Shown: positions 1 to 59,095 of the stretch, in pieces | Position numbering within the stretch: position 1 is the first letter of the stretch | Layout of the letters: each line of letters begins with the position of its first letter | Origin: Catajapyx aquilonaris | Lineage: Eukaryota | Assembly: GCA_000934665.2 (NCBI GenBank) | Contig: KZ538032.1 | Location: 1 to 64,000 of the forward strand | Length of the DNA: 64,000 bases | Direction of reading: 5' to 3' | Notes under the pieces: generated by a model | What the model was told of the DNA's origin: nothing | The model's input: the letters and a program-made list of their open reading frames with translations, nothing else | Databases searched by the model: none | Translations under genes and position numbers: made by a program

Positions 1-1153
1 GAAACAGCGGCCATCAGTCGGAGATTAGCTCCATTTTCATCAACCCACCTCCTACATGCCGCTTTCCACTACTCAGGAGACATTGACAATAATATTCTTC
101 TGTCGGTGTTGTTGCAATTGGATCTATGTAAGAGGTATGCCACCATTGCCAGGCAAAGAAGTGGAAGGGTGAAACAAAAACGATCTGTTGCTCCATTGGA
201 AAGGTTAGCCTTCCTCTACTGGCTGAGCCCCCACAGCTACGTAAAATGCTCCTCTCAGGTACATCGTCGTCTGATTCGAAACATTTCCTGAAGACCATCA
301 GAAATTACAATTCGGCCTTCCAGATGACATCTTTTGGGGCCGACGTTGTTAGAGAAGGGGGCTTCATGCCTACATTCAAAGTGCAAGGGCAAATTTACCA
401 TCGCATGGGATCACTCCTTCCTTCAGAAAATGAGAGTCCGCGGTTTCTGCAGCTTTACTTCGTGGGGAACATGCAACAGCAGGCGGAATACCGTTGCACC
501 TACTTAAACGGCACGCGCCTCGACATCATACTGCAACTTCAGGAGATGATCCATTCCACCCACACGTTTGCGTCAAATGCTTCAAGCTTGCACTTGAGAG
601 TCCTCCTCCTCTGGAATTTGACTTGGTCATCGATGCAGCAGACAAACGACCACAAGGCGAGCATCGTGGTCGATTCAATCAACCTTCTTGCAATGAGATT
701 GCTGTTATCATGAGTGGTCAGGAGCATGGTAATAACCGGGATATTGTGTTGAAGCTTCGAGACAACACGCTTCATCTATGCAATTATGAACGTAATTGGC
801 TATACCAAATTATTGAATGTGCATCCAGTCCAAAAAAACACACAATGGATGTGAGATTGTAAGCTCTGCCATGCTGGAGCTTCTATACATTCTACATTTA
901 CTTCTACATTTACTCCACAACCTTCAATTTTTCATGACATACTTTTGCTGGATTTTGGAGGTGTATCGTGTATTTTCTTACAATCCGACATCCGCAGTGT
1001 GTTGTTTGGACTTCATGCACATGCAATATGCTCCATGTCACTGGTATGCCAACATTGTATAGCCTTAAATATTGCAAAGGTAACTACCAAATCAATGAGT
1101 CACTCCTATGGAAAAGTATTTCATAACCCGAGCAACGCCGGGTATCCTGCTAG
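1..1153 (+). mobile_element. Decayed, internally deleted Helitron (N-terminal Rep/helicase-protein remnant plus 3' terminus)
   Basis: Translation gives CHHCQAKKWKGETKTICCSIGKVSLP and HFLKTIRNYNSAFQMTSFG...FKVQGQIYHRMGSLLP...FLQLYF, then after a frameshift near 565 EHRGRFNQPSCNEIAVIM...RDIVL; these motifs are typical of animal Helitron proteins. In-frame TAA near 128. 3' end has the hairpin cccgagcaacgccggg (1127-1142) and CTAG (1150-1153) followed by T. The 5' end lies outside the window. Confidence 0.88.
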
Positions 1154-3660: not shown

Positions 3661-3743
3661 AGTGTGTTCCAGAAGTGATTATGACGCACCTTTTCTCCGG
3701 GCGTGATAGTTTGCGAGTTTTGTTCTAAACCAGTGCTCAAAAT

Positions 3744-5126
3744 CAGGGTTGTGAACCGAACCGAACCCTTGCTCCGTGAACCCGATAACAGCGAACCCGA
3801 TCCGGAGCAGTAGAGTCGGGTTCGGAGCGAGCGTCGGAACGGGGTTCGGGTTCAAGGCGGCTCCGGAGTTGAGTGGAGGCAAGGTCGGAGCTGGTTCGGA
3901 GCAAGCGTCGGAACGGGGTTCGGGTTCAAGCCGGTTCAGGAGAAGAGTGGAGTGAAGGTTCGGAGTTGAACCCGGTTCAGGAGCGGGGTTCGGAGCGTGT
4001 TCCGGATCGGGTTCGGAGCGGTTCAAAGCTTGGTTAGGTACAACATACCAACCCAACAGGGGGAAAGGCAGCAAAACCGCTGGATTTACTCCAGAGTATG
4101 CATCATGTTTTCATGGTGGGAGAATGACATTTCCAAGCACCCGCGATACAGGGTGTACCGCAAATGTCACATTTTCATGCATGCGCATTTTGGTATGTTA
4201 CAATATGTCATGCGCATTTTTGCATGCCACAATATGTCATACGCATTTTTTGGATGTCACATTTTCATGCATGCGCATTTTTGTATGCTACAATATGTTA
4301 TGCGCATTTTTGTTTGTTACAATATGTCATGCGCAGTTTTGTATGTCACAATATGTCATACGCATTTTTGAATGCCTCAATATACCATACCCATTTTTTG
4401 GATGTCACATTCTCATGTCATATGCATTTTTTGTATGTTACAATAATATGATATTGTAACATACAAAAAAATGCGTCAGACATGAAAATGTGACATCCAA
4501 AAAATGCGTATGACATATTGTGACAAACAAAAATGCGCATGACATATTGTAGCATACAAAAATGCGCATGACATATTGTAGCATACAAAAATGCGCATGA
4601 CATGAGAATGTGACATCCAAAAAATGGGTATGAGATATTGTGGCATACAAAAATGCGTATGACATATTGTAACATACCAAAATGCGCATGCATGAAAATG
4701 TGACATTTGCGGTACACCCTGTATCGCGGGTGCTTGGAAATGTCATTCTCCCACCATGAAAACATGATGCATACTCTGGAGTAAATCCAGCGGTTTTGCT
4801 GCCTTTCCCCCTGTTGGGTTGGTATGTTGTACCTAACCAAGCTTTGAACCGCTCCGAACCCGATCCGGAACACGCTCCGAACCCCGCTCCTGAACCGGGT
4901 TCAACTCCGAACCTTCACTCCACTCTTCTCCTGAACCGGCTTGAACCCGAACCCCGTTCCGACGCTTGCTCCGAACCAGCTCCGACCTTGCCTCCACTCA
5001 ACTCCGGAGCCGCCTTGAACCCGAACCCCGTTCCGACGCTCGCTCCGAACCCGACTCTACTGCTCCGGATCGGGTTCGCTGTTATCGGGTTCACGGAGCA
5101 AGGGTTCGGTTCGGTTCACAACCCTG
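3744..5126. mobile_element. hAT-type palindromic (foldback) element
   Basis: Termini CAGGGTTGTGAACCG / CGGTTCACAACCCTG; 8-bp TSD CTCAAAAT (3736-3743, 5127-5134); arms 3744-4148 and 4722-5126 are reverse complements; subterminal CCGAAC-type repeats. Confidence 0.9.
4149..4721. mobile_element. Tc1/mariner-like MITE with internal inverted ~29-bp minisatellite, nested at the centre of the hAT palindrome
   Basis: TA|CAGGGTGTACCGC...GCGGTACACCCTG|TA; internal units like tgtatgctacaatatgtcatgcgcatttt switch orientation near 4448. Confidence 0.75.
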
Positions 5127-5832
5127 CTCAAAATAAGAATATTGAAAAACAACTTTTAGGACATTTCATTCGGGGACGTCTGCTGACATCCCTATGCCGC
5201 ATAACAAGTTTTTACTGCTTTTTTAGCCTAAGGAACTGGTGGAAAGCAAACCTTTTTGTACTAGCAATGACCTGATTCTATGGTAGACTAATGTTACCAA
5301 ACAACAATCAATCCTTGTTGACATTATGGCATCATTGATATTGTTGCATGTCATTGTTGACATGGTAACCCCGTTGCCATGGTAACGCGGTTGCGGGAGA
5401 AACCAACTAACTTTGCCTTCAAAAATTAATGATTGTTGTTGATTGCATTAACCATTGATGCAGGCCGTGAGAAGAAAGCATGTACAGTTTCTACCGGTTC
5501 CTATACACTACATACTGTACCGTACAGCACGTCTAGTACAATCTGGGTTCTGTCTTGCGGGTAAAGCCTTGTTTACACGATCACTTTCCTAATGTGCGTA
5601 GTTTACACAACTTTCCTAACGCAAGTCCCTACCCTCCACACGGCCACTTTGCTAAAGTTAGTACTTATGGAAGTAGGCCGTTAGTAGGCAAGCTGCTGGG
5701 CCGTTAGCAGTGGTTAGTAGCTAAGCTGAATATGCACCAGATTTTACATCTCCTGGCCGTCCACATAGACTGTCCTCGTCCGCCGACTCAGCCCCCTGAT
5801 CATACTCCCTGCCTTGACACACGTAAGATACG

Positions 5833-10810: not shown

Positions 10811-11400
10811 TTTGATGACACTGTCACAAGTGAAAATGGCACATAACACTCCTGCCAATAAACATGGGTTTTTCCAAGGTTTTATTTGCCAGAGGAGTAT
10901 TTTTGTTGATGCATGCTGTAGTTCTTTCTATTTAAAATATAATCAGAGTAGTCTTTAATTTTTTTTTAAATATACGCAGCATCGTAAGGGGATCCCCAGA
11001 ACATACATTGTTCTGAGACAGTTACCAAATGATTCACCAATTAGTGGGAAAGCTCCAGTTTAGTAAGCCATCTATAATACAACAACTGTAATCTGAAAAT
11101 GTTATTTGTATTATTTACGTAAACATTATTTGCAATAATTATAATCTTGCTCTAGTGAGCCTCTAGCGAACAGCATGCACATATTTTTTAAAGATTCTTG
11201 ATGATTGGTGAATGGGGCTGTAAAACATTTTATAAACTTTCTAAATTGTCCTGGTGTTTTGTACAAATCCTTCAGTGAGAGGCCATGTAACTAAAGTCAT
11301 TTATTTATTGGTATTATTTTGAACCAGTAGTTTGGTGTGTCCATGATACACATGTTGTTGCAGGCAACTTCAATGACATTAGTTGAACTATGGTTCCAAC

Positions 11401-13037
11401 ATGCACGGCTCGAACATGCACAAAAGGCAGTTCTCCTTCCCTCCACCAATGCCTCTTGCCCATCCTCCACCTGCAAGCACATACATGCCACCACAATCCC
11501 TGATCTACCCACAGAACCAAAGACAAACCCTCCCTCACAATATTCCTATTCCATACCCACCTCCTATGAATTTCCCACCTCCTATGAATTTCCCACCTCC
11601 TATGAATTTCCCACCTCCTATGATTTTCCCACCTCCTATGAATTTCCCACCTCCTGTGAATGGCCCACCTCAAGGACAACAGAAGAAGAATTTGCCTACG
11701 ACACCAGATACAGATTCCAATGCCAGTGTCAGGATATCGCAGGATGGTATAGGAAACAAACAGTCTCGTTTATCGAGCCCACCAGATTGCTGGAGGTATA
11801 GGAGCATGTCCAGGTCTGAGTCATCCACATGGAAAGATGGCAAGATGCACTCTCAGACATCTGTCAGGGATCATCCAAGGTGAGGCTAATTCTCAAGGGC
11901 CTCTGAACTGATAATGATGTAAGAAATTTTGTTGCAGTGAGGCTAGAAAATGGAGGTGTTCCTATAGCCACCGAAATCAGGACGGGTATCATGGCAGATA
12001 TAGTTTCAGATCTCAGTTAGAATCAAGTACCTGGGACAGACGGGCTTGTAGTCGTGAGAAAGCACAGGACCGAAGGGCACCCAGGCCCAGAAGAGAACTG
12101 CGTGGCAGAAGCATGAAGGCGTCGCCTATGTCGAGGCAATCTGAAGGCAGAAGCTCTGATGGTCAAGTGTGAGTAGTTATTAAGATCTACTTACAAGCAT
12201 AAAATAATATGACAAGTTTCTGACATTGTCCTTCTGTGCAATGTGGAAAAGCAGTAAATGTGGTTGATTGCTGATGACATTGCAAGCCTGCACACAGGAG
12301 GTGTAAAATGCAGTAGAACTTGTATTATGCAAATCTTACAAGAACCTGAAAAACTTGGACTAATAGCAGATTCAAGGTGCGGAATTTTGAAAAAATTCGC
12401 AGGGCAATGTCGCAGGGCTAACTGTACAAGGACATTCATTGGGGTTTAGTGGACCGCCCTTGCTTGGCATCTGGCACGGTACCTTTTATTTTTCTATTTA
12501 GATGTAGAAGCTTTGGTCCTTTTCGTAACGCCCGGGTACCATGATGTCCGTGAGCGAGGGGGGATGAGTAGGAGGGGATATGCAATGTGCACTGCAGTAA
12601 AGTTGCTGTGATCATTTTTGTGAACTCGCTCAGGTGGTTAGTCTAGCGGAAATCCCACCCGAGATGAAGCCAGGGAAAATGATGACCCCTAACTATGCAT
12701 GAAATGAAGATGGGAATGCCCGGGCTTGGTATCGAACCCGGAACACTTACATCCTTGGGCGCATGCGTTACCGCGCGCCATTCCGTCTCCCATGGACATT
12801 TACTTTATTTCCACACTGTTCACTGTTAAAATATGAAACAGACACTGTCCCATAGTGTTACATCATATAATTATGGGAAACAAGTATATCAGTATTTTCC
12901 TCGGTTCAGAATGTCTGTATTGAGTTCCGTTGGAAATACAAGTTTCATAGTGACTATTGTCCCTCCTAGACGCTGTGCTTTCTTGCCCTTACGTCTTACA
13001 GATAGTATGCCTATAATTAGACAAGATTTTGAATATC

Positions 13038-13105
<68 letters not shown>

Positions 13106-16100
13106 AAAATAGTCCAGATTGGTATACCTTTGCAGAATCTCTATTAATAAACGCTAGAATATCGTGGCAATTTTGGTTGACAAACTATGAAAATATCGAT
13201 GTTTTACTAAACTAATTACAACAACTACTACTACTTACTAAACTAATTTTGTGGATAACACACTTGAAGCGGACCAAGTGGCATTAGTTGACACACGAGC
13301 CTATAAACATTATTTTGAAATTTCGAATGGATATCTACAGGAAAAGTATTTGCACCAGGGGATGCCATTAAAGTTAGCACGATTAATATTAAATTGAGGG
13401 AACAACTCTAGAGTTCTGTACATTCAAGGATACTGTATGAAAATTGACAAAGAAGAAATAATTATGTTCCTTATGTAACAATATGGTTGGTTGATCTCTT
13501 TTTCATATCCTGTTTGAATGTGATTTCTACCAAGAAGCTCGTGAGTGTATAAAAGATTTTCCGAGGGTTCCACCAGATGATGTCTATGGCCTAGTCCGTA
13601 TCCATTCAGGCAGGGGGGTTACCTTCATAGTCTCAGATGTTTTTGAATTTAACATATGTTAAAATTCAGGCAAAGGTAAGAGACCCGTTTTTTTTTGTTT
13701 TGTTCAAAAAAATTCCTGGCCCGAGATACAGGCCGCCAAAGATGGCGCCTCGGGCGCCATATTTCTCACTTGGGATTATCGGCAAAACTTTGAAACGCTC
13801 TATCTCTGGAACGGTTAAAGATACTTTGTTGCGGGTTTTTTTTATTTGAAAGATGATATTCTTCCGATTAAAATGATATCCTCCGTTTGGAAATATGTGT
13901 CCAAGTTCTCTTGCTGTAGCCTTTTGAATATCTTTTTGGAAAAATCAAACATAATTTTTTTTTCAAAAAAGGCAATCCCAAAAATTTTGATTTTCTGACT
14001 GTTGATTAGTACCATAGAGTACTACATTCCCTGAAAAGGAGAGCTTCCACCTTTGAGTTTAACAGGTTTTATAACCAATGTTCATGTTTAAGCTTCCGTG
14101 GTTAATTTGGATTGGATACAAGATGGCTGGGGCCAGGATCCACACCGATCCACACCCTACTCATGTGAAAATATCAGTGGTAATGATCCTATTGGCTATT
14201 GATTGTGAACAACAGGTGGTGAAGTTGCAACCCATCCTTTTGTGGTCCAACAGCACTTAATAAGTAAGCTTTTGTGAGGATTCCGCTGATCACGGTCTTA
14301 AAAGATTTAAATTCAAATAAAATTAAAAATTAAAATTAAAAATTAAAATTAAAAACAAAATTAATAAAAATTAAATAAAGATTAAATTTTGGAAACTTTA
14401 GTATGCTTTGAAAGCTGTATCTGTAACTTATATTTATTAAGAATTAAAATGCCATGGCAAATAAGACTAGAGTTTGATTTCATGAGACCAATACGTGAGT
14501 ATGTGTAACGGAAATTGGTTTAATGCATGGCAAAATTTTCAATTGTTTATAAACCCTGTTAAACTCAAAAGTGGAAGCTCTCCTTTTCAGGGAATGTAGT
14601 ACTCTATGGTACTAATCAACAGTCAGAAAATCAAAATTTTTGGGATTGCCTTTTTTGGAAAAAAAATCTGTTTGATTTTTCCAAAAAGAAATTCAAAAGG
14701 CTACAGCAAGAGAACTTGGACACATATTTCCAAACGGAGGATATCAATTTAATCGGAAGAATATCATCTTTCAAATAAAAAAGCCCGCAACGAAGTATCT
14801 TTAACCGTTCCAGAGATAGAGCGTTTCAAAAATTTGCCGATAATCCCAAGTGAGAAATATGGCGCCCGAGGCGCCATCTTTGGCGGCCTGTATCTCGGGC
14901 CAGAAATTTTTTTGAACAAAACAAAAAAATACGGGTCTCTTACCTTTCCCTGAATTTTAACATATGTTAAATTCAAAAACATCTGAGACTATGAAGGTAA
15001 GATTTTCTCTTTGCCTGCCTGAATTGATATGGACTAGGCCCTATACTTTGTTAATAGATATGCCTACCATAAAGGTCTTTTCCTTATACATCAGTATTGT
15101 CACAGTTGAATCTTGAATGCCTTACCTGAACAGCCCCTTTTTGTGGTGGGACTCACTCGCTTTTTGATCTGAGGGTGTCCAGAGGAGCTGCTGATACTGG
15201 CATATATAAGTATTCAGTGTGATATTGGGTTTGGAGTCCCCTTAGCTGATGGTGTTGTTGAGCCTGGGTTCCTGGTTCATTGTTGATGGATTTGACGGGC
15301 AGGTTGAACGCACGTCATGTGTGAGGTTCAGTGAATTGTATATCCTAGTCTTCCCATGGTTTCATCATCAGATATTCTTTATTTTGGGGAAATGTTGAAC
15401 GCACTTTAAAGTGTGATGTTCAGTGAGTTTGTACGACCTATCCTCCCCCATTATTGCATCATCGAGTGTTCTTTATTTTTGGAGTCTATTGTTGCAAAGG
15501 TTAAATGAGTAATGTGAGGATTGATTCATTGATTGTGAAGAGGTATTATTTGATTGATGTTTTGGATGCAACAGGGGAAAGGAAGAGGGATTCGAAGCAT
15601 ATGTCATAGTGTGCTGAAAAGCAGATGCGGGGTCAGGGATGTGTGTAAGATGTTTTGATGGACATGAAATGGGGCAAATTGGCAGTGCATGATCATTAAG
15701 TCCACTGCGCTTGATTTATCACGGACCTATGACCTACAGGTTCCGTTTGGGCCTCATCCTCTCCTTGTCTTGTGACAAGTATAAATTCTTGTATGCAGTA
15801 AAAAAGCTACAACTGTGCGATATTGTCATGTAAGTTTGGAGGGGGATGGTCTTTCCAAATATACTACATTGTATAGGGAAATAATAATAATAGTAATAAT
15901 AGTAATAATAATAATAATAGAGGGCGACACGGTGGCCGAGTGGTTAGCGCCGCAGCCTTCTACCTCTAAGGTCCCGAGTTCGATCCCCGGGTCGGACGGA
16001 GGATACTTATGTGGATAGAGTTTCGATGGGTTCTCTCCGTGTTCGCGTGGGTTTTCTCGGGGTTCTCCCGTTTCCTCCCACTATCAAAATCCATCACATT

Positions 16101-16175
16101 ACAGGCAAATGATTAAAGTCGGTTATTCAAAAGATGATCCCCTAAGAGGCCCAAGGGGCCTATCACGGGGTATCC

Positions 16176-16244
<69 letters not shown>

Positions 16245-19200
16245 CAGTGGAAAAACATCCCTGAATCTGGCTCAAATTTTGACATGTGGAAACTGAAGAA
16301 TGCCCCCCCTCCCCCACTTCGAGTTACAGAGAACTTTGAGATATGGAAAGTCGACTTCCTGATGATTTTGACTGATCTCTTCAGCTAATAGAGCACTGTG
16401 AGTTAGGGATGTTCATTTGCATAAGTTTCGTTCACTATAGGCAAATTCCAGATACTGTATGAGTTTCAAAATTTGGAGCCTTGAATGCTGCTTATTATTT
16501 CCCAATAATTAAGGTCGTTAATTATTTAATTATTCATTTTTAAACGATGACATTTATCTCCTTCTTTTTCCAGTTTGACAGAAGAAGAAAATTCTAAAGT
16601 AGATTCCTCCGAGCTGCCACAAATGGTAAAGAAAGTGACTCTTGAAGATATGATTGAGCAGGAAAAGAAGATTCGGGTGGAATCGGTTCCTGCCACTCTC
16701 TACTATGTAAAGGATAAAGTGTAAGTAATTTGGTAGAGCACTGTTACCAATATTATTGTGTGTAGCCTATGCTATACAAAAGGCAAAGGTCGATTTAGTT
16801 TTCAATGATTCTCATTCAACGCTTTCACATTAAGTTATAATTATAACATCTGGTTTTCTGCTCGTAACGGGGGTGCTCGTACTGATTCTCGCAAGGGCTG
16901 CGGCTGGTCGGTTGGGAGCTCCGCTCCGACCCTGGAGGCTCCCAATAACAGAAGGCCTGGTATGAGGTCAGCTGTTGAATACTTGGCTCCGACAATGGAA
17001 GGGCCCAGTGAAGACTGGCTGCAGCAACACGCCCCAATGGGCGATGAATTATTTTTTTTTAAAAGCGAGCTAATGCCATTTAAACGCTCACTAGTCGTTT
17101 TGGGGTCCAAAAAGAACCCCGTTTCAAGTTAGCGACCGGTTTTTTTTCCTGACCACAAATAGTCCTACCCATGGTTAATTCATGATTGGCAGGTTTAAAC
17201 TTTTCGCAGGCAACTATGAAGCTTTTGAGACTGGGGCGAGGATGAGATTGTAAATGTTTACAGTATATTGATTTCTCTGTATTGGTTTGTGGCACATGCA
17301 ATGGAAATAGACTATGGGTAAACAGTGAACAACGCCTCATGAGTTAACCACGGTTAACCAAGCATCACCGGAGACCAATTTTTTGTAGGCCTATGTGCCA
17401 CTCATAGGCTAATACTGCTGTTGATGAAAGTTTATAATATAAAAACGGCGTGGGGACAAAAAAGACCCCAAGTTTCTAGTTAACCATGGCTAAATGAGGT
17501 TTAATATTGAAGGTTAAAACTCTGTATATGCAACTGACAGTTTTCGTGGTAATAACCTGTAAAATATAAGAGAACTTCTGTAATTCGAATTTTAAAGCCA
17601 CCATCAAGAAATAACAAGTTTTGTGAAGTGTGAGTTAAAGGTGATTCCATAAAATAACTTAGTTATGGTAGAAGTGAGTTCGGGTGTTATCATCAGCTGG
17701 ACGATAACCTTAATGAGAGAAAAACTTAGTACAAGGGGCCAGCCTTTAAAACTGGACAATATTTATTTTATGGAAATTAATTAAGCAAAGTTCTATCCTA
17801 TAAGCTAATGCCTGGAGTTTTTGGTGGACATGTTCGAATGAGGAATGTTTGTGTGATTACTTTACTTTGTGACCACCTATTTTTGTAATTTTTTTAATGA
17901 AAGAGAACTTGCGGGCGTTCAAATGATGGAAGTTCCTCTGCACACTGCTATTGTCGCACCAAAGGAGTAGTATTGCCTACGAATGCTGTGGTGATGCCAA
18001 TAACTACTATTGAGTATTACAGGAACACAGAAATTATGAGGGCAACGCCAAAATTGGAGGATCTTTGCAAACGCTTTGAGTACGAGCTTGTAAAACGCGC
18101 TGAACATATCCGTGCAGAAAAGCCAAAGTGTGAGCTACCACCTCGCAGGGAAAAACTGCGAATCTGCAAAGACAGAGGTACCGGTATTTCATGTCACATA
18201 ATTATTATATCTTTCTATTTTCTTATTAATTTATTTCGTTTTACAACAGCAACATGTGGTGACAGCTCAAATGACTCCAGGTCAAATGGGGATGAAAATG
18301 ACTTGGATTTGGAAGACCAGGAGATAAAACAGCATCATCCAGACGGTCTTCACCCAGAGTTGTGGTATAATGATCCTGGAGAGACGAATGTTGGTCTGTT
18401 CTGCAAATGCTCAGGTCAGGCTCGGACTTCGGGGATTAGACATGGGATTTATGCAGGTGAATCTAGGCTGACACCCTGCGATACACTTAGCAACAATGCA
18501 CAACTGCTGCATCATTACAAGATATTAATATCGCCTCCTACTAATTTTTTGGTAGGTCAATTTATAAAAATAGTATTATCTCAAGAAAATAATTACTGAT
18601 TTTTATTTTGTCACAGACAAAAACTCCAACTGTCATCCAGCATGATGACAATGAATTTATCTTTGAGGGTTTCTCTCTTCTGTCACATCAGCCTCTGAAA
18701 TATTTTCCGCCCTGCAAAGTGATGCGATTTAACATAGAACATACCATACATTACATTGAGGAAAAGATGCCTGAATATTTTGTAGTGGAAGAATTAGAAC
18801 TGTTTAGTAAGTGATTAATAACTCAACAGTTCTTTGCTGCATATTTCTGAGTGCTGCAATTGCCTTCCAGGAAAGTTTCTCTTCATAGAATTGCTGGAAC
18901 TGGTTGATCTTGACATTCATGCTGTAGGAGACAAAGATGGCTGTCCTCGATTTCACATTATGCCGCGGTTTGTAAGAGAGATTCCTAGTAAGTAAAGAAT
19001 GCAATTTTGTTTAATCTTCTTACGAAATACCGTATGTTTCCATTTTTTCAGATAATAGAAAGGAAATATTGTCTATGAATGTAGTGCTGACATATTTGGT
19101 GGAGAGCAACAAGCCGTTGATCAATGAGTCAGGTCTCCCCCGCTTATTAGAAATGCCTCATCTTGATTGGCAGAAATATGTGGCTGAGGTTAAGGGCATG

Positions 19201-22200
19201 ATTGTAACCTATCCTGGAATGAAACCGTGTTCAGTGCGAGTTGACCAACTTGACAGGCAGCAGGATCCGTGCCTGAGGAATGGGCAGCAAGTGAAGAGGG
19301 AAAGAATACAAGAGGAAAAAGAGATGAAGGAAATTGAGGAAGACAAGGTGACAGAGGCTGAAGGAAGCCATGCCTATCCTGAGATTGTTCACTTTGGAAT
19401 TAGGCCACAGCGGATAAGCTATTTACGCAACCCAGAGTAAGTTGGACAGGCACTCAAAGTTCATGCAAGAACTGAATAGATGCCATGATATTGGCTGTTT
19501 ATATGAGGCAGGGGATCTAGTCATCTGCCAAGGGCACAAATAGCATGAAAAGTATTGGGGTAGGAGGTAAAGCTCTTTCACATTTTCTCTCAAATGATTA
19601 TGCAAAATATGGGATAAAATTTCTACTGCTGTATATTGAAATTTTAACTAGTGATTTCTTCGGTGCCTATAAGGACTGAGAATGCTGCACTGGCCCAGGT
19701 TGATATGGGATTATGGGTGGAATTTTCGTCCCACTGCTAGTTACTGCTAACTTCGCAGTAGGCCTACCAGTATTGGACCTTGGTACTGCTAAGTTCACTC
19801 AGTAAATTCTAGTAGTGGGACTAAAATGCCACCATATGTCATTATGCCCACGGAGCATGATTAGTGCAGATCAGAATGCTCTTCGCCATTTGTTTAGTAT
19901 AAATTGAAAGACTAAATAATGGTGATGGAATATGTCCATTTGTGGTAGTAATATATTATTGCGTCGCATTGCAGTTGTGAGATACAAATAGCCGTTATTT
20001 ATCATTTTCTTTTTTAACTGTCTCTTTATTTAGAGTTTTAGACTAAACAAATAGCACTGAACAGTGATCTGTACTGTTGATATACATAACCATAATTATG
20101 TCAAACTGGGTCGGGGAGGCATATGTCTCAGGCTTTTCTGGTAGAATTCCATGGAAAAAAATGTATCTGGGCAAAACATTTCCATTGCAATGAAATGTAC
20201 AGCATAAGTTATATATAGTATTTTGTCAACTTTTGCATATCTCTAGTAGATGTCAAAAATTATTTGGTAACTGCAGGCTGTGATGTTGTTTATTCCATAT
20301 TTATAACCATTAATGTTCCTCGATTATCTCGATTATCCTCGATTACATGATGCTTATTTTATTCAATAATATTGCTGTCCAGTCTGCAGGAAGGAAGCCT
20401 TTTTTCCCAGTTCCCCCTCATTTGCTGTAATTCTACAGTCTCACTTCTAATCACTCATGTCTCATTTCTTGGCATTTAGAAGCTTCAAGTTTTAATGTAA
20501 ATTTTTGTATTGATTATCATTTACTTAATACAATTTTCCTAGTGTTATTCAGGTCCAATTCACACATTACATTAAAATCTTCATACTGTACTTGGACAAA
20601 TGGATAAAAATCCAGTGTCCAGAGATGAATTCTTGCTGTTGACACCGAAGCAGTGGTGGCGGAGGGGATATGGTATCCGACTGCTAATCGGGAGGTCCTG
20701 GGTTCTAATCCCGGTGCCGGCAACTCTAACCATGGTTTTCTGTGGTTTCCCACGGTTCCTCCAGGAGAATTCCGGAGGTGTTTTCTAAACTAATAGGCCA
20801 CAGCCACCTCCTTCCTTTCCTATCCTATCCCAAAAAGTGCAGTAAAAACGAAACGAAGAGTTCCAGTAAAAAAAAAATCCCCCCTAAAGAGCCGCCGGCT
20901 GATAACGGGGTATGAATAATTATAATTCTTGCTGTTGACTGAACAGTAGTTGTATTGAACAATGGGCATTCCATAAGGTTCGCTGATAATAATTTGTATG
21001 ATATAAGTTACACTGATAAGAAGGTGCAGAATTTGTACGTCACAAACCTTTTGCAATTGTTTTGATCATAACTCTTATGAAAGGCTTATTGGTTATTGTT
21101 TAATCTCACTTGTAAACATCAGATTTATGAATTGATTGCCTGAAGTACACCTTTTAAAATTTCCACATAATCCGCCTATTTTCAAATGTAATACTAATTA
21201 TTATTTAATAACTATTTTCAGGTATCAAAAGACTCGGCGTGAGTATGTAAAACTCCGTCATATTTTGGCAAACATGCCCAAGCCATCTTTTGAAGAGAAA
21301 CGAAAGCTGAAAGCCAAAGAGAAGCATCTCCAGGAGATGAGGCTGCACAACGAGCTGAAGCGATCCGTGACAGTAGCTGTTTCTAGCAAAGGATTTTACC
21401 GCAGCGGGATCATGTATGATGTAGTGCAGCATGCTATGATTATTCCTGCTCTAGTTTGCCATCTACGATTCCACCAGTCACTGTCTGTTCTGGAAGAAAT
21501 CATAGGTTACACATTCCAAAATAGATATCTGTTACAGCTGGCACTAACTCATCCTTCATACAGGCAAGAATATATTATTCATTTACATCTCACTTGTCAA
21601 GGCTGGGAGAAATTGGGCAATATTTTCTTATTTAAATCTAATATTCTTCTTGCAGTGAAAATTTTGGTACAAATCCTGATCATGCTCGCAATGCTATTAC
21701 AAATTGTGGCATACGTCACCCTGAATATGGTGACCAAAGGGCGAACCCACGTAAGAGGGGCATCAACACCTTGATTGACATAATGTCCCGTTTTGGGAAT
21801 AAGCAGGAGACAGAATCCAAGGCTACCCACAACGAGCGACTGGAGTTCTTAGGTGATGCAGTGGTGGAGTTCATCTCAACTGTCCATTTATTTTACATGT
21901 TTCCAAATTGGGAGGAGGGTTTGTTGAGCATATACAGGAATGCAAGTGTGCAGAATCAACATTTGGCCGTCTTAGCCAAGGCAAGTTTCTTTCACATTCT
22001 TCAATGAGATTTGCCTTTTGGTGGCAATAGTTTTCTAAGACACCTGTGGGTGTCATACACACTAGTGAAAGTATTTATTTCACTTTGTGGCGAAGACAAA
22101 ATTCTGGTACTTAATTTTGGCATATTTGTAAAAATACAGTATAAGTAGGCCCTGTATGTTACCAGATTCCAAGAGCAGGTATCTTTTGGTCTGAAACACT

Positions 22201-25200
22201 TTAAAATAATTTTCCACGAAATTCAAGATAGCTCATAATGGTGCATATTTTGAGCTACCATTTCCCATAAACCATGTGTCAATCTTACTTAGTATTTTAG
22301 GAACTGTGAGACCAGGAAAACGGTTATGAATATAATCCTGAAGGTAATACGAGGTGTGAGGTGTGGTCTTGCCTGTATCTATTTTTATCATTTTGACCAA
22401 TAATATTTATGGCATGAAAATGGCGACTGCCACCAGTGCCTCGTGTGGTCACTATAGTGTAGTATACTATTCACAAGCTTGCTGCTGCACTGACTCGTGT
22501 CGTCACTACTGTAATATACTATTCACACGCTTGCTGCTGCACTGCCTCAATGTTACTTAGAGGAGTATAATTATACTGTATTGAGTTTCTACATTACCGG
22601 TACTGTACTTCCTGCCACGACCTTGTCCTTGTGGATATTTTGATCAAGTGTTTTGATCCAATATCGATCCAAACTACAATATTAAACATCTATTAATTAT
22701 TTTATTTTATTTTTTATTTTTTATTATCAGGGGAATTATGCGAGTAATGTGTTACATTTTGCCAGAATTTTAAAAGGTTAAACTTCTAGCCTTCCATTTT
22801 ATGAACTATTAGTTATGTCTATATGGGGTGTAGATGTCAGTTGTTGTGCCCAACCCTTTTTGAGGTTTCATGCAAGAAAGGCAAAAATGTATGATCTGGA
22901 AGGAATGCAGAGAACCAGTCAAAACTCCTGCATGGAAATAGATCCTCTCAGTAGGGAGACGGAGTGGCGCCGCGGTAACGCGTGCGCCCACGGAAGTTAA
23001 GGTCCCGGGTTCAATCTCCACCCGGGGCTCCCACCTTCTTTCGTGCAGAGTTGGGCCATCTCTGGCTTCGTTTCGGGTGGGAATTTCCGCTAGACTAACC
23101 CACCCGGGGGAGTTCACAAAATGACCATAAAACGACATTGCACTTGCACTTTGCACATCCCCTCCTAATTACCCTTGGAGCAATTAAAATACGTATAGAT
23201 GTATCGCTCCAAAAACCTCCCCTAGAAATGGCCTCTCGGCCAGATAATGGGGTACAACTAAAAATAATAATAATAAAAATGATCCTCTCAGTAAGGTTTG
23301 TCAGAATGATGTTGCCATTTTACGTGCATACATAAAGTGAAGCCTTCAGGGAATATATATACCATCGCAACGTGTCACTATATGTGGCTTACTAAGGTCC
23401 AGTGCACCATGGATGCAGAATTTATCGTTATTTTTTATATTGTTGTCAGAAATTAATAACCAGGATAAATCTTCATAGTCCGCTTTCAGTGATGAAACTG
23501 ACCGTGAGTCTAAACTAAATTTCAAAATTTTAGACACTCAAGTTGGACCAATTTATGCTCTGCTCTCATGGTTCTGATCTGCGCAATGATGCGGATATGC
23601 GCCATGCTATGGCAAACTGCTTTGAAGCTTTAATGGGGGCCCTGTTTTTGGATGGAACCATCAAAGTGGCTGACAAAGTGTTTTCCAACACAATGTATGG
23701 TGATGACAAGGATCTCTTGGATGTGTGGGTGAATTATTCACCCCATCCTCTTCAAGAGCAGGAACCCAATGGTGATCGCCAGTGGATAAGTTCCTTCCCA
23801 ATTCTGCAGGTAGTACTTGCATTTTTTGTACTGTCTCTATTGCACATTCTAATGGTGATGACTGATGACCAATTGATTGAAGTAAGTTATATTTTTCAGG
23901 TTAGACATACAGACTTTTTGTGTGAACTTTATTTATCTTTTATTGGTATTGTTTCATTCTACAGACATTGACACAATTTGAGGAGGCAATTGGAGTGGAG
24001 TTTATTCACATCAGATTGCTAGCACGTGCTTTTTCCGATCGAAGTGTTGGATACAACAATCTGACGATGTAAGTCAGTATAGTCAAAATGTTTGATCATC
24101 AAGGTAGTTACTCGGAGATTTGTACCGGCGTTAAGGAAGTAACGTAGTATTCTTTTTTTTTTTGAAAATAGAAGCACCACTTTTTCATGAACCCTGCTTA
24201 TCCTAATTTATTTATTTATCTAATATATATTTCAAGACCTATATCTGTCTGTGACCTCATCAGTTCCATACGGAGGCCTCCTCATATGCCCCAGGGGTAT
24301 CACTAGGGGCGGTTTTTTACTGGGAAGGTTCTTAGCGCATTGGAATTGACCTCCGAGGTCATCCTTGGCCACAGGAGGCGAACAGGACTTTGGAACACTC
24401 TTCTAATAATGCGCAATTGGCTGTAAACATCACCTGTCTTGGGTTACCGGGGCAACCACTGAATGCCCAAGTCCCGTCCCCACTGCCCCCCCCCCCGTCC
24501 CATACACCCTCCCGCTCCCCCCCACCATCCCCGTTCCGTAATAATCAACATTTAACTTTCAATATTTCATTATATTACAAACACAACACAAAAAACACGT
24601 TCCCACGGCAACGACGTTCCATCGCGGTCAACAAGCAGTTCCATAATCTACACCGGCGCATTAGCAAAAACATACGGTAACAATGAAGCAACCGAAGAAG
24701 GTTGGCATAGTGGATAGGGCGTCCGACTGCTAATCGGGAGGTCCTGGGTTCGAATCCCGGGCCGGCAACCCTGACCGTGGTTTTCTGTGGTTTTCCACGG
24801 TCTTTCTAGGATAATTCCGGGGTCGCTTCCGTATAATAGGCCACAGCCGCTTCCTTCCTTCCCTATCCTTGGAGGTTGAAAGGCAATGCTGGGCCAACCT
24901 CCTTAATATCAATTATAAAAGTAACAATGAAGCCCTTGGCGACAGTGCCGGATCTACGAAATTTAGGAGGGGGGGCAGAAACCCCCACCCCCGCGGTTTG
25001 AAAGTTTGGTATCATTTTTCTGACATGGATCTTCTGCACTTCAGGCAGTGGCGCATGCAAAATGTTCTTTTGGGGGGAGCTGGTAGGCGAGGAAGCCCGC
25101 CGCAGGCGAAAATGTTTGTGTGTTCAAGGTCACACAAGCTGAGGGTGCTGAATTTCTTTCTGCCAGAAAGAAATATCATCTTCAGCGTTGTTTTGCATTT

Positions 25201-26389
25201 CTGCTGGGAAAGAGTCCCTAAGATGCACTACAGTTTTGACTACCAGTCCAAATAATATACTGTTTGCAGATATTTTCGTAATGAACGCACGTCTTGTCAT
25301 TGTCCCGGACAATACACAAGAGAAGGGTTAGCATGAAAGCTTTCTGCAGGACAAGAAGGTTAATAACTATTTCAGATCTGCATATTGCACTTGAAAGGAG
25401 TTCTGCTTAATAGGTGGCTGTAGTTTTGTCGTTACAAGTTCACAAACAATTCCAGTGTTGTCAATAACGTACATTAGAGGGTTTTCAATCATTAGAGAGC
25501 CGTGCGTCCCAATCTTTTTCGGATAGATGTGTAAAATTCGCAACCACCACTTCCAATTCAACCCTACCCCTTTCCTTTGGTGGTAGTTAATTACAATAAT
25601 CGCTAAATTAACACATCTCGTTTACGGGCAAATTTTCTAGAGAGATAGAATCAATCTGCACAAACAACTACGTAGTTAACCTTCCTCGCGACTCCAAAGG
25701 GGTTGCGACCGCAAAACGGAAAAGAACACAACAGCGGCGGATTTCCCATTAGGCACAGTAGGCACTGGCCTAGGGGCGACAGCGAGTTGCAATAAATATA
25801 TTTCTCAAATACAATAATAGGAAATTAAGGCGAGATCACTAAGAAAACGAATTTTCGAGAGCTTGATTTGCCGTATACAGGCAGATATCCCTGAACCCGA
25901 GAGACGTCGGCGCCTGTAGCAGCTGTGAGTATGGGAGTGTCAGTACTGTGTACGCGTCACCAGTGAAGTCCTGGTCCCATGCTGTCCAGCCATAAGCACG
26001 GGTGGTCATCCTGCACCTTGTCTGTGTAATGCTATAACCATTGTGTCATGTGTCGTTCAATAAATTAATGTGTACTGAGAAACTCGCCTTGATTAGGAGT
26101 GCCCCAACCCACTTCATACTGGAGAACCCGGTGGGCATCTGACCCTATCCTCACTCCCAATCATAATCCTTAATCCCAACCATAAATCCCCAAATTGACT
26201 AGTCGTTACAAAATTCCCCAGGATACACGTGTGGTGCCAAGCTGTGGCGATGGTTACATAAAACATGCTTCAAAATATTATGGACTAATGGATAATATTA
26301 TTTTGTTTGGCTATCTCAGGTCCCCACGTTGAAATAACTTATACTAACTTGAGGTGTGAAACATGTGTATTATAATAATAGTAATAATA

Positions 26390-26452
<63 letters not shown>

Positions 26453-29048
26453 TGTGGGTAATGCTTTCACCCCTTACGGGGTATATCGCATGAACCTTTA
26501 TTTTATTTTACAATTTTTCTTTAAACTTCCACTCCGGTGCAAAGAATCAAGGAATTTGGGTAAGGATAGGGATTTTTCGGGGAGGGGACACGGGTGCAGG
26601 TGCAATGTCGTTAAACGGGTCATGTGCAGTCCCCCAGGAAGTTAGGTTGCCAGACACCTCCTCGGTGCAGGTCAGAGACCCTCCTGACGCAGGTGAAGGG
26701 AGGTTCCCCAGGCGGGGATCGAACCTGGGGCCTTTCACTCAGCAAGCCGAGACGTTACCATCTCGGCCACCACACCTCCCCTCTATTCTCTACTCCATAA
26801 AGCAAATGTCACTTTCTTTGGGAATAATACGGCTAGGATGAAACCAACTTGTGTCACGAATCACACTTTCTCAGCCAAGGGCCATACCACGTCGAAAGCA
26901 CCAGTTCTCGTCCGATCACTGAAGTTAAGCGGCGTTGGGCGCGGACAGTACTTGGTTGGAAGACCACCTAGGAAAACCGCGTGCTCTTGGCCCATTTTTT
27001 TGAATCATTTTTGAATTTTTCACGCTGATTTCAGCAATTAAGATATTGTATCAAGGTCTTGGGACGATTTTTTAAAAAAATCATTCTCCTTTACTATTTG
27101 GTGAACCTTATTTGCACGAGGTTGCTGCCTCCTGATTCCCACCCTCGCCTCGGTGCTCAAATGTGAGAATGACACGTGGGTCATACAAACGAATTCTTGT
27201 TCGCCCATACCGGATGATTATCGTTCGAAATTCTCTACTCCATAAAGCAAATGTCACTTTCTTTGGGAATAATACGGCTAGGATGAAACCAACTTGTGTC
27301 ACGAATCACAATTACTCAATAATATCTCATACCTCTTGACGAGGATATAGGAGGATGGTAAATATTTCACACTTCCTTACGTCGCAGAGACCTCCGAGTA
27401 CTACTTTTGGATTCCTTACCCCGCCAAAAATTCTCATAATCGCCAATTTCCCATCCGATTTAGAGATATAGCCAAAAGAAGAATCGTGCACGTCTGACCT
27501 TGCCCATCTGCTGGTCGTTAAGTCCCCGACAACAATGGGCCCACCCCCTCTCTAGGGACCTCTCCACCCGCTCTTCCATATGTGTATTCCCCCGTCCTCC
27601 CACCCTGGTTCTCCTTTTTCGTGATACGTCATCTATAGGACGCATTCTTATCCTCTTCACCTTCAGCGGTGACGTCAAGGGTGAATGATCTGTACATATA
27701 TGCCTCCGCCATAAACAAATTGCCTTAAAAGACATGCACTGTGCACATTATCGTAACTTGCAGAGTTGCTACTACGGCATACTGCTTGACTCTTCCTATC
27801 CCGATTCATATAATTACAAAAGTTTTTGTGAACTAAAGGCATTCTTCTTCGAAATTACTAATTGAAGGGGTCGGTGCAATACTGCCCTAACCCTCCCAAA
27901 CCTGATTTGAGAAAACTGCAGTTGAAAGTTTGAGAGGCCATATACATCCCATATACCATGTGACTTATTTAATTTGATTTCTCAGTGACCGATGGCAGAA
28001 ACTGCACAATTTCAATGGATTTTATTAGATACATGAGTGTAGTACATGGAAGTGTGCTTAACTCAATTTGTGTCATTTGGTGGGTTAGGTCGGTATTGCA
28101 CCGACCCCTTCAATTAATCCGCCATTCAACGGGCCGGGTACCATACCGCTATATATATAATACAATAAAATAAATTAAATATATTATTACACCTTGATTG
28201 CAGGGGTTCCAATCAGACCCTGGAATTCCTGGGTGATGCTGTCTTGCAACTTATTGCGTCTGAATATCTATACAAATATTTTCCTGAGCATCATGAAGGG
28301 CACCTTTCAGTAAGTGTGCGATTATTATGCTACTTTCATTTCGGTAGTTTGATTGCGGATTTGTACCTCTAGCTGCTACGAAGTGCATTGGTGAGCAACA
28401 AAACCCAGGCTGTGGTCTGTAATGACCTTGGTATGGCTAATTATGCATTTTACTCCAACCCCAAACCCGTGATAAAGACAAAAGATCACGCAGATCTGCT
28501 AGAAGCATTCATAGGAGCCCTGTACGTGGACAAGGTTAGTGTGGCATTTCAAATTGTGGATAAGAAGTCATTCATTAATTAATTAACATTTTATTCACAG
28601 GGCTTGGACTATTGCCAAGTTTTCTGCAATGTTTGTCTTTTTCCTCGGATGAACGACTTCATCCTCAACCAAGAGTGGAATGATCCTAAGTCAAAGCTAC
28701 AACAGTGCTGCCTAGCTTTACGCTCAACGGATGGTAGTCCACCAGACATTCCTGTTTATAAGGTAATTGAGAGAAAGGGGTCTTCCAACTCACGTATATA
28801 CACTGTGGCTGTGTACTTCCGTGCGGAGAGGCTTGCTAAGGCATCAGGTCACTCCATACAACATGCTGGGATGAATGCTGCTAAGGAAGCACTTGCAAAA
28901 TATCAAGGTGGGAATTACTGGAGTAGATGTAGGCTTTCCATGGCTCATTTACATATCTATGCTTTTTTCAGATTTGTTTCCACAATTCACTCATCAACGC
29001 AAAGCATTGAAAAAGAGCAAAAAAAAGCAGAGGAAACCCCAGAAATAA
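11401..29048 (+). CDS. drosha: Drosha (class 2 ribonuclease III, Microprocessor nuclease), multi-exon, divergent
   Basis: Phase-consistent coding exons read by hand: 11401-11879 (Pro-rich), 11938-12168 (R/S-rich), 16574-16720, 18023-18177, 18250-18551, 18617-18806, 18871-18987, 19052-19436, 21222-21563, 21656-21980, 23534-23809, 23965-24068, 28204-28309, 28373-28534, 28601-28907, 28972-29048 (TAA). Motifs: [27 protein letters not shown], RIIIDa [15 protein letters not shown] and [16 protein letters not shown], RIIIDb [11 protein letters not shown] and [14 protein letters not shown], ds[16 protein letters not shown]. The start codon is inferred (in-frame TAG at 11380-11382). Confidence 0.96.
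11557..11660 (+). repeat. 18-bp coding minisatellite (PPPMNF) in the Drosha Pro-rich exon
   Basis: About 5.5 near-identical copies of cccacctcctatgaattt. Confidence 0.95.
12440..12791 (-). mobile_element. tRNA-derived SINE, family A
   Basis: Minus strand starts gggagacggaatggcgcgcggtaacg...gggttcgatacc (Pol III A/B boxes); homologous to 22954-23280 and 54305-54697. Confidence 0.8.
13042..13103. repeat. (GA)n microsatellite
   Basis: Directly visible. Confidence 0.98.
13588..15040. mobile_element. ~1.45-kb foldback DNA element with ~480-bp inverted arms in a Drosha intron
   Basis: 13588-14075 is a near reverse complement of 14545-15040. Ends read either CTAT|GGCCTAGTCC (4-bp TSD CTAT) or GGCC|TAGTCC (TAG termini, Academ-like); superfamily uncertain. 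Confidence 0.85.
15922..16242 (+). mobile_element. tRNA-derived SINE with V-domain-like core and (AAT)n tail, family C
   Basis: A box ggtggccgagtgg, B box gagttcgatcccc; core ttctctccgtgttcgcgtgggttttctcggggttctcccgtttcctccca; inserted in or ending in AAT repeats; relative at about 59853-60100. Confidence 0.8.
20644..20923 (+). mobile_element. tRNA-derived SINE, family B
   Basis: 16-bp TSD AATTCTTGCTGTTGAC (20628-20643, 20924-20939); tRNA-like head with ccgactgctaatcgg anticodon arm and B box; copies at about 24691, 41830 and 42530. Confidence 0.88.
22954..23280 (+). mobile_element. tRNA-derived SINE, family A
   Basis: 13-bp TSD GATCCTCTCAGTA (22941-22953, 23281-23293); A/B boxes; (AAT)n tail. 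Confidence 0.9.
24691..24925 (+). mobile_element. tRNA-derived SINE, family B
   Basis: accgaagaaggttggcatagtgg...gggttcgaatccc; homologous to 20644-20923. Confidence 0.8.
25890..26210 (+). mobile_element. Possible partial solo LTR (R/U5-like)
   Basis: AATAAA at about 26058 and terminal ...GTTACA at 26210; no matching 5' TGT end or TSD identified. Confidence 0.3.
26372..26781 (-). mobile_element. tRNA-derived SINE, family D, with adjacent (AAT)n
   Basis: Minus strand gggaggtgtggtggccgagatggt...caggttcgatcccc; highly similar to 32756-33120. Confidence 0.85.
26785..27310 (+). repeat. Identical 81-bp direct repeats (26785-26865, 27230-27310) bracketing the 5S gene; 445-bp period
   Basis: attctctactccataaagc...gtgtcacgaatcaca is present twice. 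Confidence 0.92.
26874..26993 (+). rRNA. 5S rRNA: 5S rRNA gene (divergent single copy or orphon) inside a Drosha intron
   Basis: 120 nt colinear with arthropod 5S (GCCAAgGgCCATACCACG...GTTCTCGTCCGATCAC.GAAGTTAAGC...AGTACTTGG.TGG..GACC.CCT.GGAA.ACCGCGTG..TTGGC); helix I closes; T7 Pol III terminator at 26995-27001. Confidence 0.9.
27859..28116. mobile_element. MITE with 24-bp TIR
   Basis: taattgaaggggtcggtgcaatac / gtattgcaccgaccccttcaatta. Confidence 0.8.
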
Positions 29049-29946: not shown

Positions 29947-45704
<15,758 letters not shown>

Positions 45705-48584: not shown

Positions 48585-53286
<4,702 letters not shown>

Positions 53287-57906: not shown

Positions 57907-59095
57907 TATAGAGCCATGTGTTTTCAACAAAAAGCACAAATTCGGCGTATAAGTTACTTTTAAATATATGTAATTCAATAATTAATTTAGCCCTCTGCTC
58001 ATAATCATTTTGTTAATGAAAGACTGGGAGAGTCAACTTCCTTGTCTTCCCCTCTCCCCTTTAACCCTTGCACAAGCCCGGAGGGAACAAAAATAATTAT
58101 AATAAAATAATCATATGTTTGTGAGGTGAGAAAGAGAAGGGGGGGATTCAGTCCATGCATTTTTTCGAAACATATTCCACTAAAATGGTGTACGCAGTTC
58201 CTGAATTTCACTAGGTTAGTTAAGCGCATAATTGGGCAGTACTGTGTGTATTACTAACAATTAGCGATGCTTTTATATTGTTCCACATAGTTCTGATGCT
58301 CATTCATGTTTAATTAGAAAATTGACCATAGGCATAGTATAGGTTTGAAACATTGCAATTGGCGGCGCTCGTCTGATCCCATCAAATGAGGCACGCAGGC
58401 GAGGCACGTGACATTTTTGGGGGGAAAAGAAACCTCTCATAGCATTTTATAGGCTCTCTTTCTCTCAGGCTCGGAGTTGTTGGACTCGACAATAAAAGAG
58501 ACCGTAAATCTCTAGATGATGGAACTTCAGTGGTAGTGGATACCGGAAATAAATATGTCACATCAGGGAAGTGCTGTTTAATACCTCGTGGATCACGGCA
58601 AAGTTGATTAGTAAATCGTTAACCAGTTACCTCCTAAATTACGAGCGAGCCTATTATACCTATTATTTTTTTTGCAAACACCTACGAAAGGCACTTACGA
58701 GAATTAGATCCTTCATCACTTTAATTACTAAGCCGCAAAAGCCAATGCATAAGCGACGTATTAATTGGAGAACACCTCATCCAATCCTCCCCCATTTCAT
58801 GCCCAGTAAAATCTTCCTTTTCAAATAATGTCCTCAGGGGACAATGTCAAAAATCACTCTTAATAGTGTAGCTATTTTCAGGAGCTTGTCGAGATTATGG
58901 CAGAATTTTAGATTCTTAGTGGCACCTTGGAAGGCCAACAAAGTTTGGATAGTTTGGCGGGAAGGTTCCACAGAGATTTGAACTCTGACCTCTGGATTAT
59001 ATGGTCCAGTGTGCTACCATTACACTATGGAACCTACATGGCCAATCTTTCAGAACTAAGAAAATGCCTTGCAACAATTCATCTTCTGACATATA

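Follow-up and report, generated by a model that had tools for sequence, protein, structure and literature searches.

The subject of this report is a Drosha gene of Catajapyx aquilonaris, located on the forward strand within the first 64,000 nucleotides of contig KZ538032.1 (assembly GCA_000934665.2); this whole stretch of DNA was analysed and is referred to as the window. Drosha initiates the production of microRNAs (miRNAs), and few components of the animal miRNA machinery are as conserved or as consistently single-copy. The gene model occupies positions 11401-29048 (+) and consists of 16 exons with 3705 nt in total, corresponding to 1234 codons with a single terminal stop; the protein predicted from it is denoted as WIN. 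The model was derived from junction sequences and open frames, and the exons were joined by their coordinates, with splicing predicted. The gene most likely encodes a functional Drosha, a class II RNase III, as judged from its sequence. As a first-pass annotation of the same DNA had proposed, it is unusually divergent yet intact: it is an outlier among arthropod Droshas, while its frame contains no internal stop codon and its characteristic motifs are kept.

The seven arthropod Droshas used as tblastn queries gave colinear matches from approximately 18015 to 28909, and the stop-to-stop frames of the plus strand between 16.5 and 29.1 kb hold the Drosha blocks, with two frames further upstream that are P-rich and R/S-rich. 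Exon 1 (11401-11879) begins at a putative start codon, the first ATG after an in-frame stop in the open reading frame 11383-11883, and ends at the donor GTGAGG. It encodes a P-rich N-terminus with five PPPMNF-type repeats, followed by the beginning of an RS-rich part. Exon 2 (11938-12168) continues the R/S-rich region, and its phase agrees with that of exon 1 (AG+T) and exon 3 (GT+T); no Pfam family matched the N-terminal region encoded by exons 1 and 2. Exon 3 (16574-16720) forms the linker into the central domain (CED) and aligns to the block EKEKKIW..S.PA.LYY of a panel of 62 arthropod Droshas from chelicerates, crustaceans, and ten insect orders. The CED is distributed over exon 4 (18023-18177; its N-terminal part, where the tblastn matches begin at 18015-18024), exon 5 (18250-18551; FCKC, GIRH, and TPC motifs, aligned to the panel), exon 6 (18617-18806; SHQP motif), exon 7 (18871-18987; CPRFH motif), and exon 8 (19052-19436; a 28-residue E/K-rich insertion and one altered conserved block), the last three placed by tblastn and alignment. 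Exon 9 (21222-21563; tblastn) completes the CED and contains the connector helix.

RNase III domain a starts in exon 10 (21656-21980; Pfam Ribonuclease_3, E 2.1e-10), which carries the Drosha-specific insertion, a 3-residue deletion, the domain signature, and an altered block. Its second half and the linker between domains a and b are encoded by exon 11 (23534-23809; Ribonucleas_3_3, E 3.2e-06), and the remaining linker preceding domain b by exon 12 (23965-24068; tblastn). Exon 13 (28204-28309; Ribonuclease_3, E 4.1e-09) harbors the signature of domain b with an R to T change, exon 14 (28373-28534; Ribonuclease_3, E 2.5e-08) the second half of this domain with the motif HADLLEAF, and exon 15 (28601-28907; dsrm, E 8.9e-11) the domain that binds double-stranded RNA (dsRBD) with the altered block IQHAGMNAA. 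The basic C-terminal tail and the stop codon lie in exon 16 (28972-29048), which aligns to the panel block DLFPQ..HQ. The open, phase-consistent exons described in the first-pass annotation are thus borne out by the stop-free 16-exon model. The extent given there, 16574 to 29048, has to be enlarged: the exons were located as claimed, but 16574 is merely the first base of exon 3, and the gene starts upstream at 11401.

Thirteen of the 15 introns are of the GT-AG and two of the GC-AG type, and all splice sites are predicted to be usable. The GC donors are GCAAGA after 21563 (intron 21564-21655, at the end of exon 9) and GCAAGT after 21980 (intron 21981-23533, at the end of exon 10); inspection of the junction sequences revealed no frame-keeping GT donor at either site. 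Both are found in a strong AG/GCAAG context, and two in 15 introns is far more than the usual GC-AG share. Intron 4 (18178-18249) measures 72 nt, is in frame and stop-free, and its retention would add 24 residues with the frame kept. Several introns harbor repetitive sequences. In several frames, the long trinucleotide runs at about 16150-16270 (between exons 2 and 3) and 26390-26460 (intron 12) translate to poly-I, poly-N, or poly-L. A full-length match to 5S rRNA (26874-26992 (+), 104 bits, model positions 1-120 of 120) is located in intron 12, in a bin with a contig depth of approximately 35,000 compared with approximately 30 for single-copy DNA; it represents one copy among a very large number of 5S genes or else a short interspersed element (SINE) derived from 5S. 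Two weak tRNA-like matches, at 20650-20722 (+) in intron 8 (29 bits, bin depth approximately 52,000) and at 24703-24760 (+) in intron 12 (35 bits, bin depth approximately 152,000), occupy the most highly repeated bins of the gene and probably form the heads of SINEs of tRNA origin.

Contigs of a DNA run from the same organism (X1) show no differing letter over the exon-bearing stretches, at a depth of 29-35. This agreement rules out an assembly error, and together with the depth it demonstrates that the Drosha locus is genuine and complete and did not arise by the collapse of near-identical copies. The same depth over the exon-bearing bins gave no sign of a further Drosha copy that is at least 90% alike, less similar copies being outside the reach of this test. 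Another run (X5) matched repeat-bearing bins only and none that bears an exon. A chance origin is ruled out by an open frame of 1234 codons across 16 exons with 30 usable splice sites, and a retrogene origin by the 15 introns.

The family assignment is based on domain architecture, similarity, and position in trees. Pfam, run on single exons, gave matches in 5 of 15 exons; Ribonuclease_3 and Ribonucleas_3_3 on exons 10+11 and 13+14 denote a chain with two RNase III domains in tandem, and a single dsRBD is present at the C-terminus. Both domain signatures are found, as are the acidic motifs NCFEAL (domain a) and HADLLEAF (domain b). Exon 10 matches solved human Drosha chains with E values of about 2e-53, and Dicers with 2e-13 or weaker. 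Its residues 2-108 align to the human Drosha chain through the insertion of domain a, whereas Dicers align only from residue 57. This Drosha-specific insertion, which comprises a bump helix and a mobile basic helix and is absent from Dicer, is described in PMC6903759 and PMC6206976. In a protein search with exon 10, 934 of 987 candidates passed an E value of 1e-10, and the best 120 of these 934 matches are all Drosha or ribonuclease 3 where named. WIN nests within arthropod Droshas in two trees. Within the CED, the C and H residues of the CKC, GIRH, SHG, TPC, SHQP, and CPRFH motifs are kept at panel-conserved columns; in the human crystal structure, these motifs are reported to provide the ligands of two zinc sites. 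Panel alignment and Pfam matches therefore agree with the first-pass annotation that the putative zinc-ligand motifs, and the acidic catalytic residues in both RNase III domains, are kept.

For exon 10, the best 120 of the 934 matches are 64-78% identical with no order favored, and the whole model is approximately 65-66% identical to its best matches across approximately 985 residues. Over WIN residues 255-1210, identity amounts to 66-68% with most insects, 62% with two Diptera, 59% with Manduca, and 61-63% with chelicerates; in the same matrix, insect orders other than that of Manduca show 70-90% mutual identity, and Manduca 59-69%. A leave-one-out count covered near-invariant sites, defined as fixed in the other 62 panel sequences with one exception allowed. 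The maximum belongs to WIN, with differences at 60 of 429 such positions, followed by an old Ixodes model (48/383, probably due to model errors), Manduca (25/417), and Clastoptera (17/402), with all others at 11 or fewer. In the altered blocks, the panel residue occurs in 59-62 of 60-62 sequences and the WIN residue in none. Thus, the six arthropod consensus blocks given in the first-pass annotation all proved correct against the panel, and the residues in question are not variable across arthropods, apart from Q1195, changed to H in WIN (panel Q in 49/60, E in 9/60), and E676 (D in 32, E in 27). The R replaced by T in the signature of RNase III domain b is present in 62/62 panel sequences, and the E of AEMNAA in the dsRBD, replaced by G, in 60/60. 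The short deletion reported before RKRGINTL is real: after YGDQR, three residues of the panel consensus YGDRRIHYMNTRKRG are missing in the alignment. Conversely, the E/K-rich insertion in exon 8 is not found in the panel consensus. Both length changes are in frame.

WIN has also changed more often than most of its counterparts. In Tajima counts with two chelicerate outgroups, it carries 124-164 private changes vs. 47-93 in ten non-lepidopteran comparators (chi2 11-59), and against Manduca the counts are equal (119-135 vs. 121-135). A vertebrate outgroup yields a smaller excess, with ratios of 1.2-2.0. The distribution of the changes over sites was compared by setting each lineage against a panel stripped of its own relatives. 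Almost half of the private WIN residues (56/116, 48%) fall on sites that are invariant in this panel, whereas the share is 0-27% in 13 other lineages (Fisher p <= 0.008 for each vs. WIN), e.g. 31/114 (27%) in Manduca, 14-20 of 85-87 in chelicerates, 8/48 in Daphnia, 2/31 in a mayfly, and 0/14 in a damselfly. The replacements themselves are conservative, with a mean BLOSUM62 score of -0.10 for 60 private WIN replacements vs. -1.43 for random ones and -0.20 for Manduca. Read from these replacements and from the in-frame length changes, selection is apparently still acting on WIN.

The changes are clustered, with 21 neighboring pairs within 3 residues vs. 13.7 +/- 3.0 expected (P = 0.013), and the densest patches are located at WIN 650-685, 855-885, and 1145-1170. 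One patch lies beside the CKC motif (P387L, L388F, R390K) and another beside the SHG motif (Y901C, A902S, C908R). In the human structure, the two motifs are reported to share one zinc site, and the two patches may therefore touch each other. A further patch precedes the connector helix (P660Q, Q661R, L662I, A665L, G666R, A673T, W674R). The human Drosha match begins opposite the NF pair at WIN 785-786, which PMC6903759 numbers N905-F906; the same paper designates residues 930-957, just past D929, as the mobile basic helix. By this numbering, the 3-residue deletion, R810Q, and T814P would be placed where the mobile basic helix stretch begins.

A close relative of this Drosha form was found neither among longer proteins (best identity 78%) nor among exon-sized protein fragments (best 78%; the window's own exon is absent from this collection) nor among the representatives of a 50% clustering (best 73% for exon 9, and 65% over 690 residues). 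None of the 51 representatives of at least 400 residues is nearer to WIN than the ordinary arthropod set. Metagenome contigs contained at least 593 pattern-matching stretches, with 524 relatives and a best identity of 78% among the best 80 kept. No compared sequence shares more than 12 of the 76 WIN-private sites. Among 302 proteins, the highest share of WIN derived states is 4/13 sites; by number, most derived sites are shared by very distant proteins (13/54 and 13/58).

Whether the whole lineage evolves fast can be judged from a neighboring gene. A gene for a small GTPase of the Rab26/37 type is located at 48588-53235 (-); four exons were found (Pfam Ras family), and the P-loop exon was not found within the window. 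Over a core of 123 residues, the encoded protein is 83-90% identical to the compared arthropods, molluscs, and one annelid (74% to a second annelid protein, which is apparently mis-modelled), and insect orders are 83-98% identical to one another. In 48 Tajima comparisons, the window gene has 1-6 private changes vs. 4-11 in the comparator, fewer every time. Rab26/37 is not accelerated, and judged by this one small gene the lineage is not a fast one, so that the speed-up of Drosha looks gene-specific. The first-pass annotation had made its proposal dependent on the general rate of the lineage; in this one-gene control, the Drosha branch differs in rate from the neighboring Rab26/37, and neither this check nor that of the consensus residues refuted the idea.

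The same gene informs about the position of the lineage. The Rab protein keeps states of a millipede, molluscs, and annelids that are found in few or no sampled insects and decapods, e.g. EINEY in none of them and TGMNVE only in Timema. Two FastTree trees (the second excluding P0059 and P0366) put WIN in a basal position within Pancrustacea, and neither joined it to a sampled order. According to these sequence comparisons, the source appears to belong to a deep lineage of Pancrustacea that is poorly sampled. The best match of Rab26/37 is identical at 111/123 residues; since this gene is likewise without a close relative, the lineage itself is missing from the collections searched, which explains the absence of a Drosha relative.

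Beyond these two genes, Pfam was run over 276 other frames of the window and matched a receptor tyrosine kinase with immunoglobulin (Ig) domains, the Ras-family exons, and, weakly, 7tm_7, but no other family. The receptor tyrosine kinase gene (about 30198-40601 (-)) is arranged tail to tail with Drosha. It consists of five kinase-bearing frames at 30198-36396 (four recognized by Pfam, the fifth by eye) and Ig exons at 37334-40601, one of which gave a weak VEGFR-1-like Ig match; the gene looks PDGF/VEGF-receptor-like. The weak match to 7tm_7 chemosensory receptors (45098-45355 (+), E 1.6e-4) scores 21.5 bits, below the cut-off of 26.6. Two tRNA matches are well over the gathering score, at 45266-45335 (-) with 52 bits and at 58963-59034 (-) with 61 bits. 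A large inverted repeat at about 3679-5275 is recognizable by identical long translations on opposite strands (3679-4110 (-) with 4760-5275 (+), and 3956-4459 (+) with 4438-4914 (-)); no Pfam family was found in it. An open frame of 193 codons at 132-713 (+) is likewise without a Pfam match; it may be similar to the N-terminal part of Helitron-type transposon proteins.

The explanation favored here, with a probability of roughly 0.45, is that the gene is the sole Drosha copy of the animal and has undergone an episode, specific to this gene, in which constraint was shifted or relaxed. WIN would then most likely be the working Microprocessor nuclease: together with Pasha, it would bind the hairpins of primary miRNAs (pri-miRNAs), whose two strands would be cut near the stem base by its pair of RNase III domains. 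In a lineage that appears to branch deep in Pancrustacea and is unrepresented in the searched protein collections, Drosha would have passed through this episode. The process would have altered patches of normally fixed residues: in the zinc-site segments around CKC and SHG, ahead of and within the connector helix, where the mobile basic helix stretch begins, in the core of RNase III domain a, and in the dsRBD, presumably leaving catalysis and fold intact. We infer the sole-copy status, the expression, the pairing with Pasha, and any co-evolved features of partner or substrate. In favor of a sole copy, 79 of 100 insect transcriptomes contained Drosha and none of them a duplicate of it (PMC5521735), and the pea aphid has a single-copy drosha (PMC2857804). 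The equally long branch of Manduca also speaks for a sole copy, lepidopteran Drosha not being known to occur in more than one copy.

Several findings weigh against this explanation. The maximum likelihood distance of WIN from the pancrustacean node is 0.699 compared with a median of 0.515, which makes it only the 6th of 53 tips, with decapods level and Manduca, at 0.95, beyond it; the oddity of WIN thus lies in the placement of its changes and not in their number alone. The lineage-rate control consists of one small gene with 123 residues. Furthermore, invariant sites changed in WIN about as often as variable ones (12.6% vs. 11.9%), a pattern seen in no other tested lineage, and this flattening of the rate over sites would be expected of a freed duplicate. 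Of the relaxed or positive selection suggested by the first-pass annotation, it is relaxed or shifted constraint that fits these percentages. A canonical Drosha might accordingly exist elsewhere in the genome, with the copy in the window partly freed and kept in a modified role, i.e. with another partner, substrate class, or tissue. Besides the flattened rate, which sets WIN apart from 13 other lineages, the gene-specific speed-up relative to Rab26/37 and the clustering of changes in patches would suit such a second copy. The pea aphid provides a precedent, as pasha, dcr-1, and ago1 are duplicated there and one copy of each has diverged fast (PMC2857804). On the other hand, read depth revealed no second copy, in a test that reaches only copies at least 90% alike, and no duplicate was reported among the 79 insect transcriptomes having Drosha. 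Manduca, moreover, reached the same branch length. The derived states of WIN occur as a set in no protein or contig searched; since relatives should also carry an old duplicate, only a duplication restricted to an unsampled lineage would fit. WIN also keeps a full N-terminus and every domain. In the main texts of the literature searched (supplements excluded), no divergent arthropod Drosha paralogue is described beyond the several Drosha homologs that a screen of Acari tabulates for Varroa, which may or may not be separate genes (PMC7659050). On this evidence a second Drosha is a possibility to be taken seriously, if a doubtful one.

An ordinary lineage effect, by which the whole lineage would be fast or very isolated and the long branch not specific to Drosha, appears improbable. 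It would agree with the failure of WIN to join any sampled order, with the lack of close database relatives for both Drosha and Rab26/37, and with the root-to-tip distances of Manduca and the decapods. However, Rab26/37 from the same window is slower than every comparator, and the equally isolated mayfly, damselfly, Daphnia, and chelicerates rarely changed at invariant sites. Least probable is a decaying or non-functional copy that has so far escaped a stop codon. The equal change of invariant and variable sites is what would speak for it, whereas the frame is open over all 3705 nt and 16 exons with usable splice sites, the replacements are as conservative as those of Manduca, the catalytic and zinc-site motifs are kept, and the length changes are in frame. 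By a rough estimate, neutral drift to such a divergence would yield several stops and frameshifts.

Thus, approximately one in eight normally fixed positions is changed in a predicted functional Drosha beside a gene that is not accelerated, and this can be read in two ways. If the gene is the sole copy, it represents a natural experiment in the limits of remodelling a sole Microprocessor nuclease, with Pasha and features of pri-miRNAs presumably changing along with it. If it is a second copy, a duplicate would have been turned to a new use. The latter, a retained and neofunctionalised Drosha besides a canonical one that performs ordinary miRNA cropping, is put forward tentatively; if true, it would be the first clear case in arthropods, and its remodelled patches would re-tune the choice of partner or substrate. 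In both cases, the solved human structures could help to examine the roles of the residues that the changed patches single out.

Compared with canonical arthropod Droshas (ribonuclease 3 of Periplaneta americana, P0039; Gryllus longicercus, P0047; P0019), WIN has the same domain order, colinear exons over the CED, the RNase III domains, and the dsRBD, and the same catalytic, signature, and zinc-site motifs at approximately 65-66% identity. It differs from them by the 60 of 429 near-fixed positions, the 3-residue deletion, and the 28-residue CED insertion. Human DROSHA (6LXD, 6V5B, 5B16, 9ASM) aligns end to end with exon 10 of WIN, including the insertion of domain a. The human protein and the arthropod panel share the block EEGGLATYR.AIVQ, which is different in WIN, and the human chain, like the arthropod consensus, has three more residues between YGD and the basic run that are missing in WIN. 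The duplicates of pasha, dcr-1, and ago1 in the pea aphid show that an intact copy of a miRNA-machinery gene can diverge fast; in the aphid, however, drosha is single-copy and the duplicates are seen side by side, whereas here one locus is known (PMC2857804). The nearest counterpart in rate is Drosha of Manduca sexta (P0001; lepidopteran representatives P0370 and P0371). Its branch is as long as that of WIN, but 27% of its private changes are located at invariant sites, vs. 48% in WIN.

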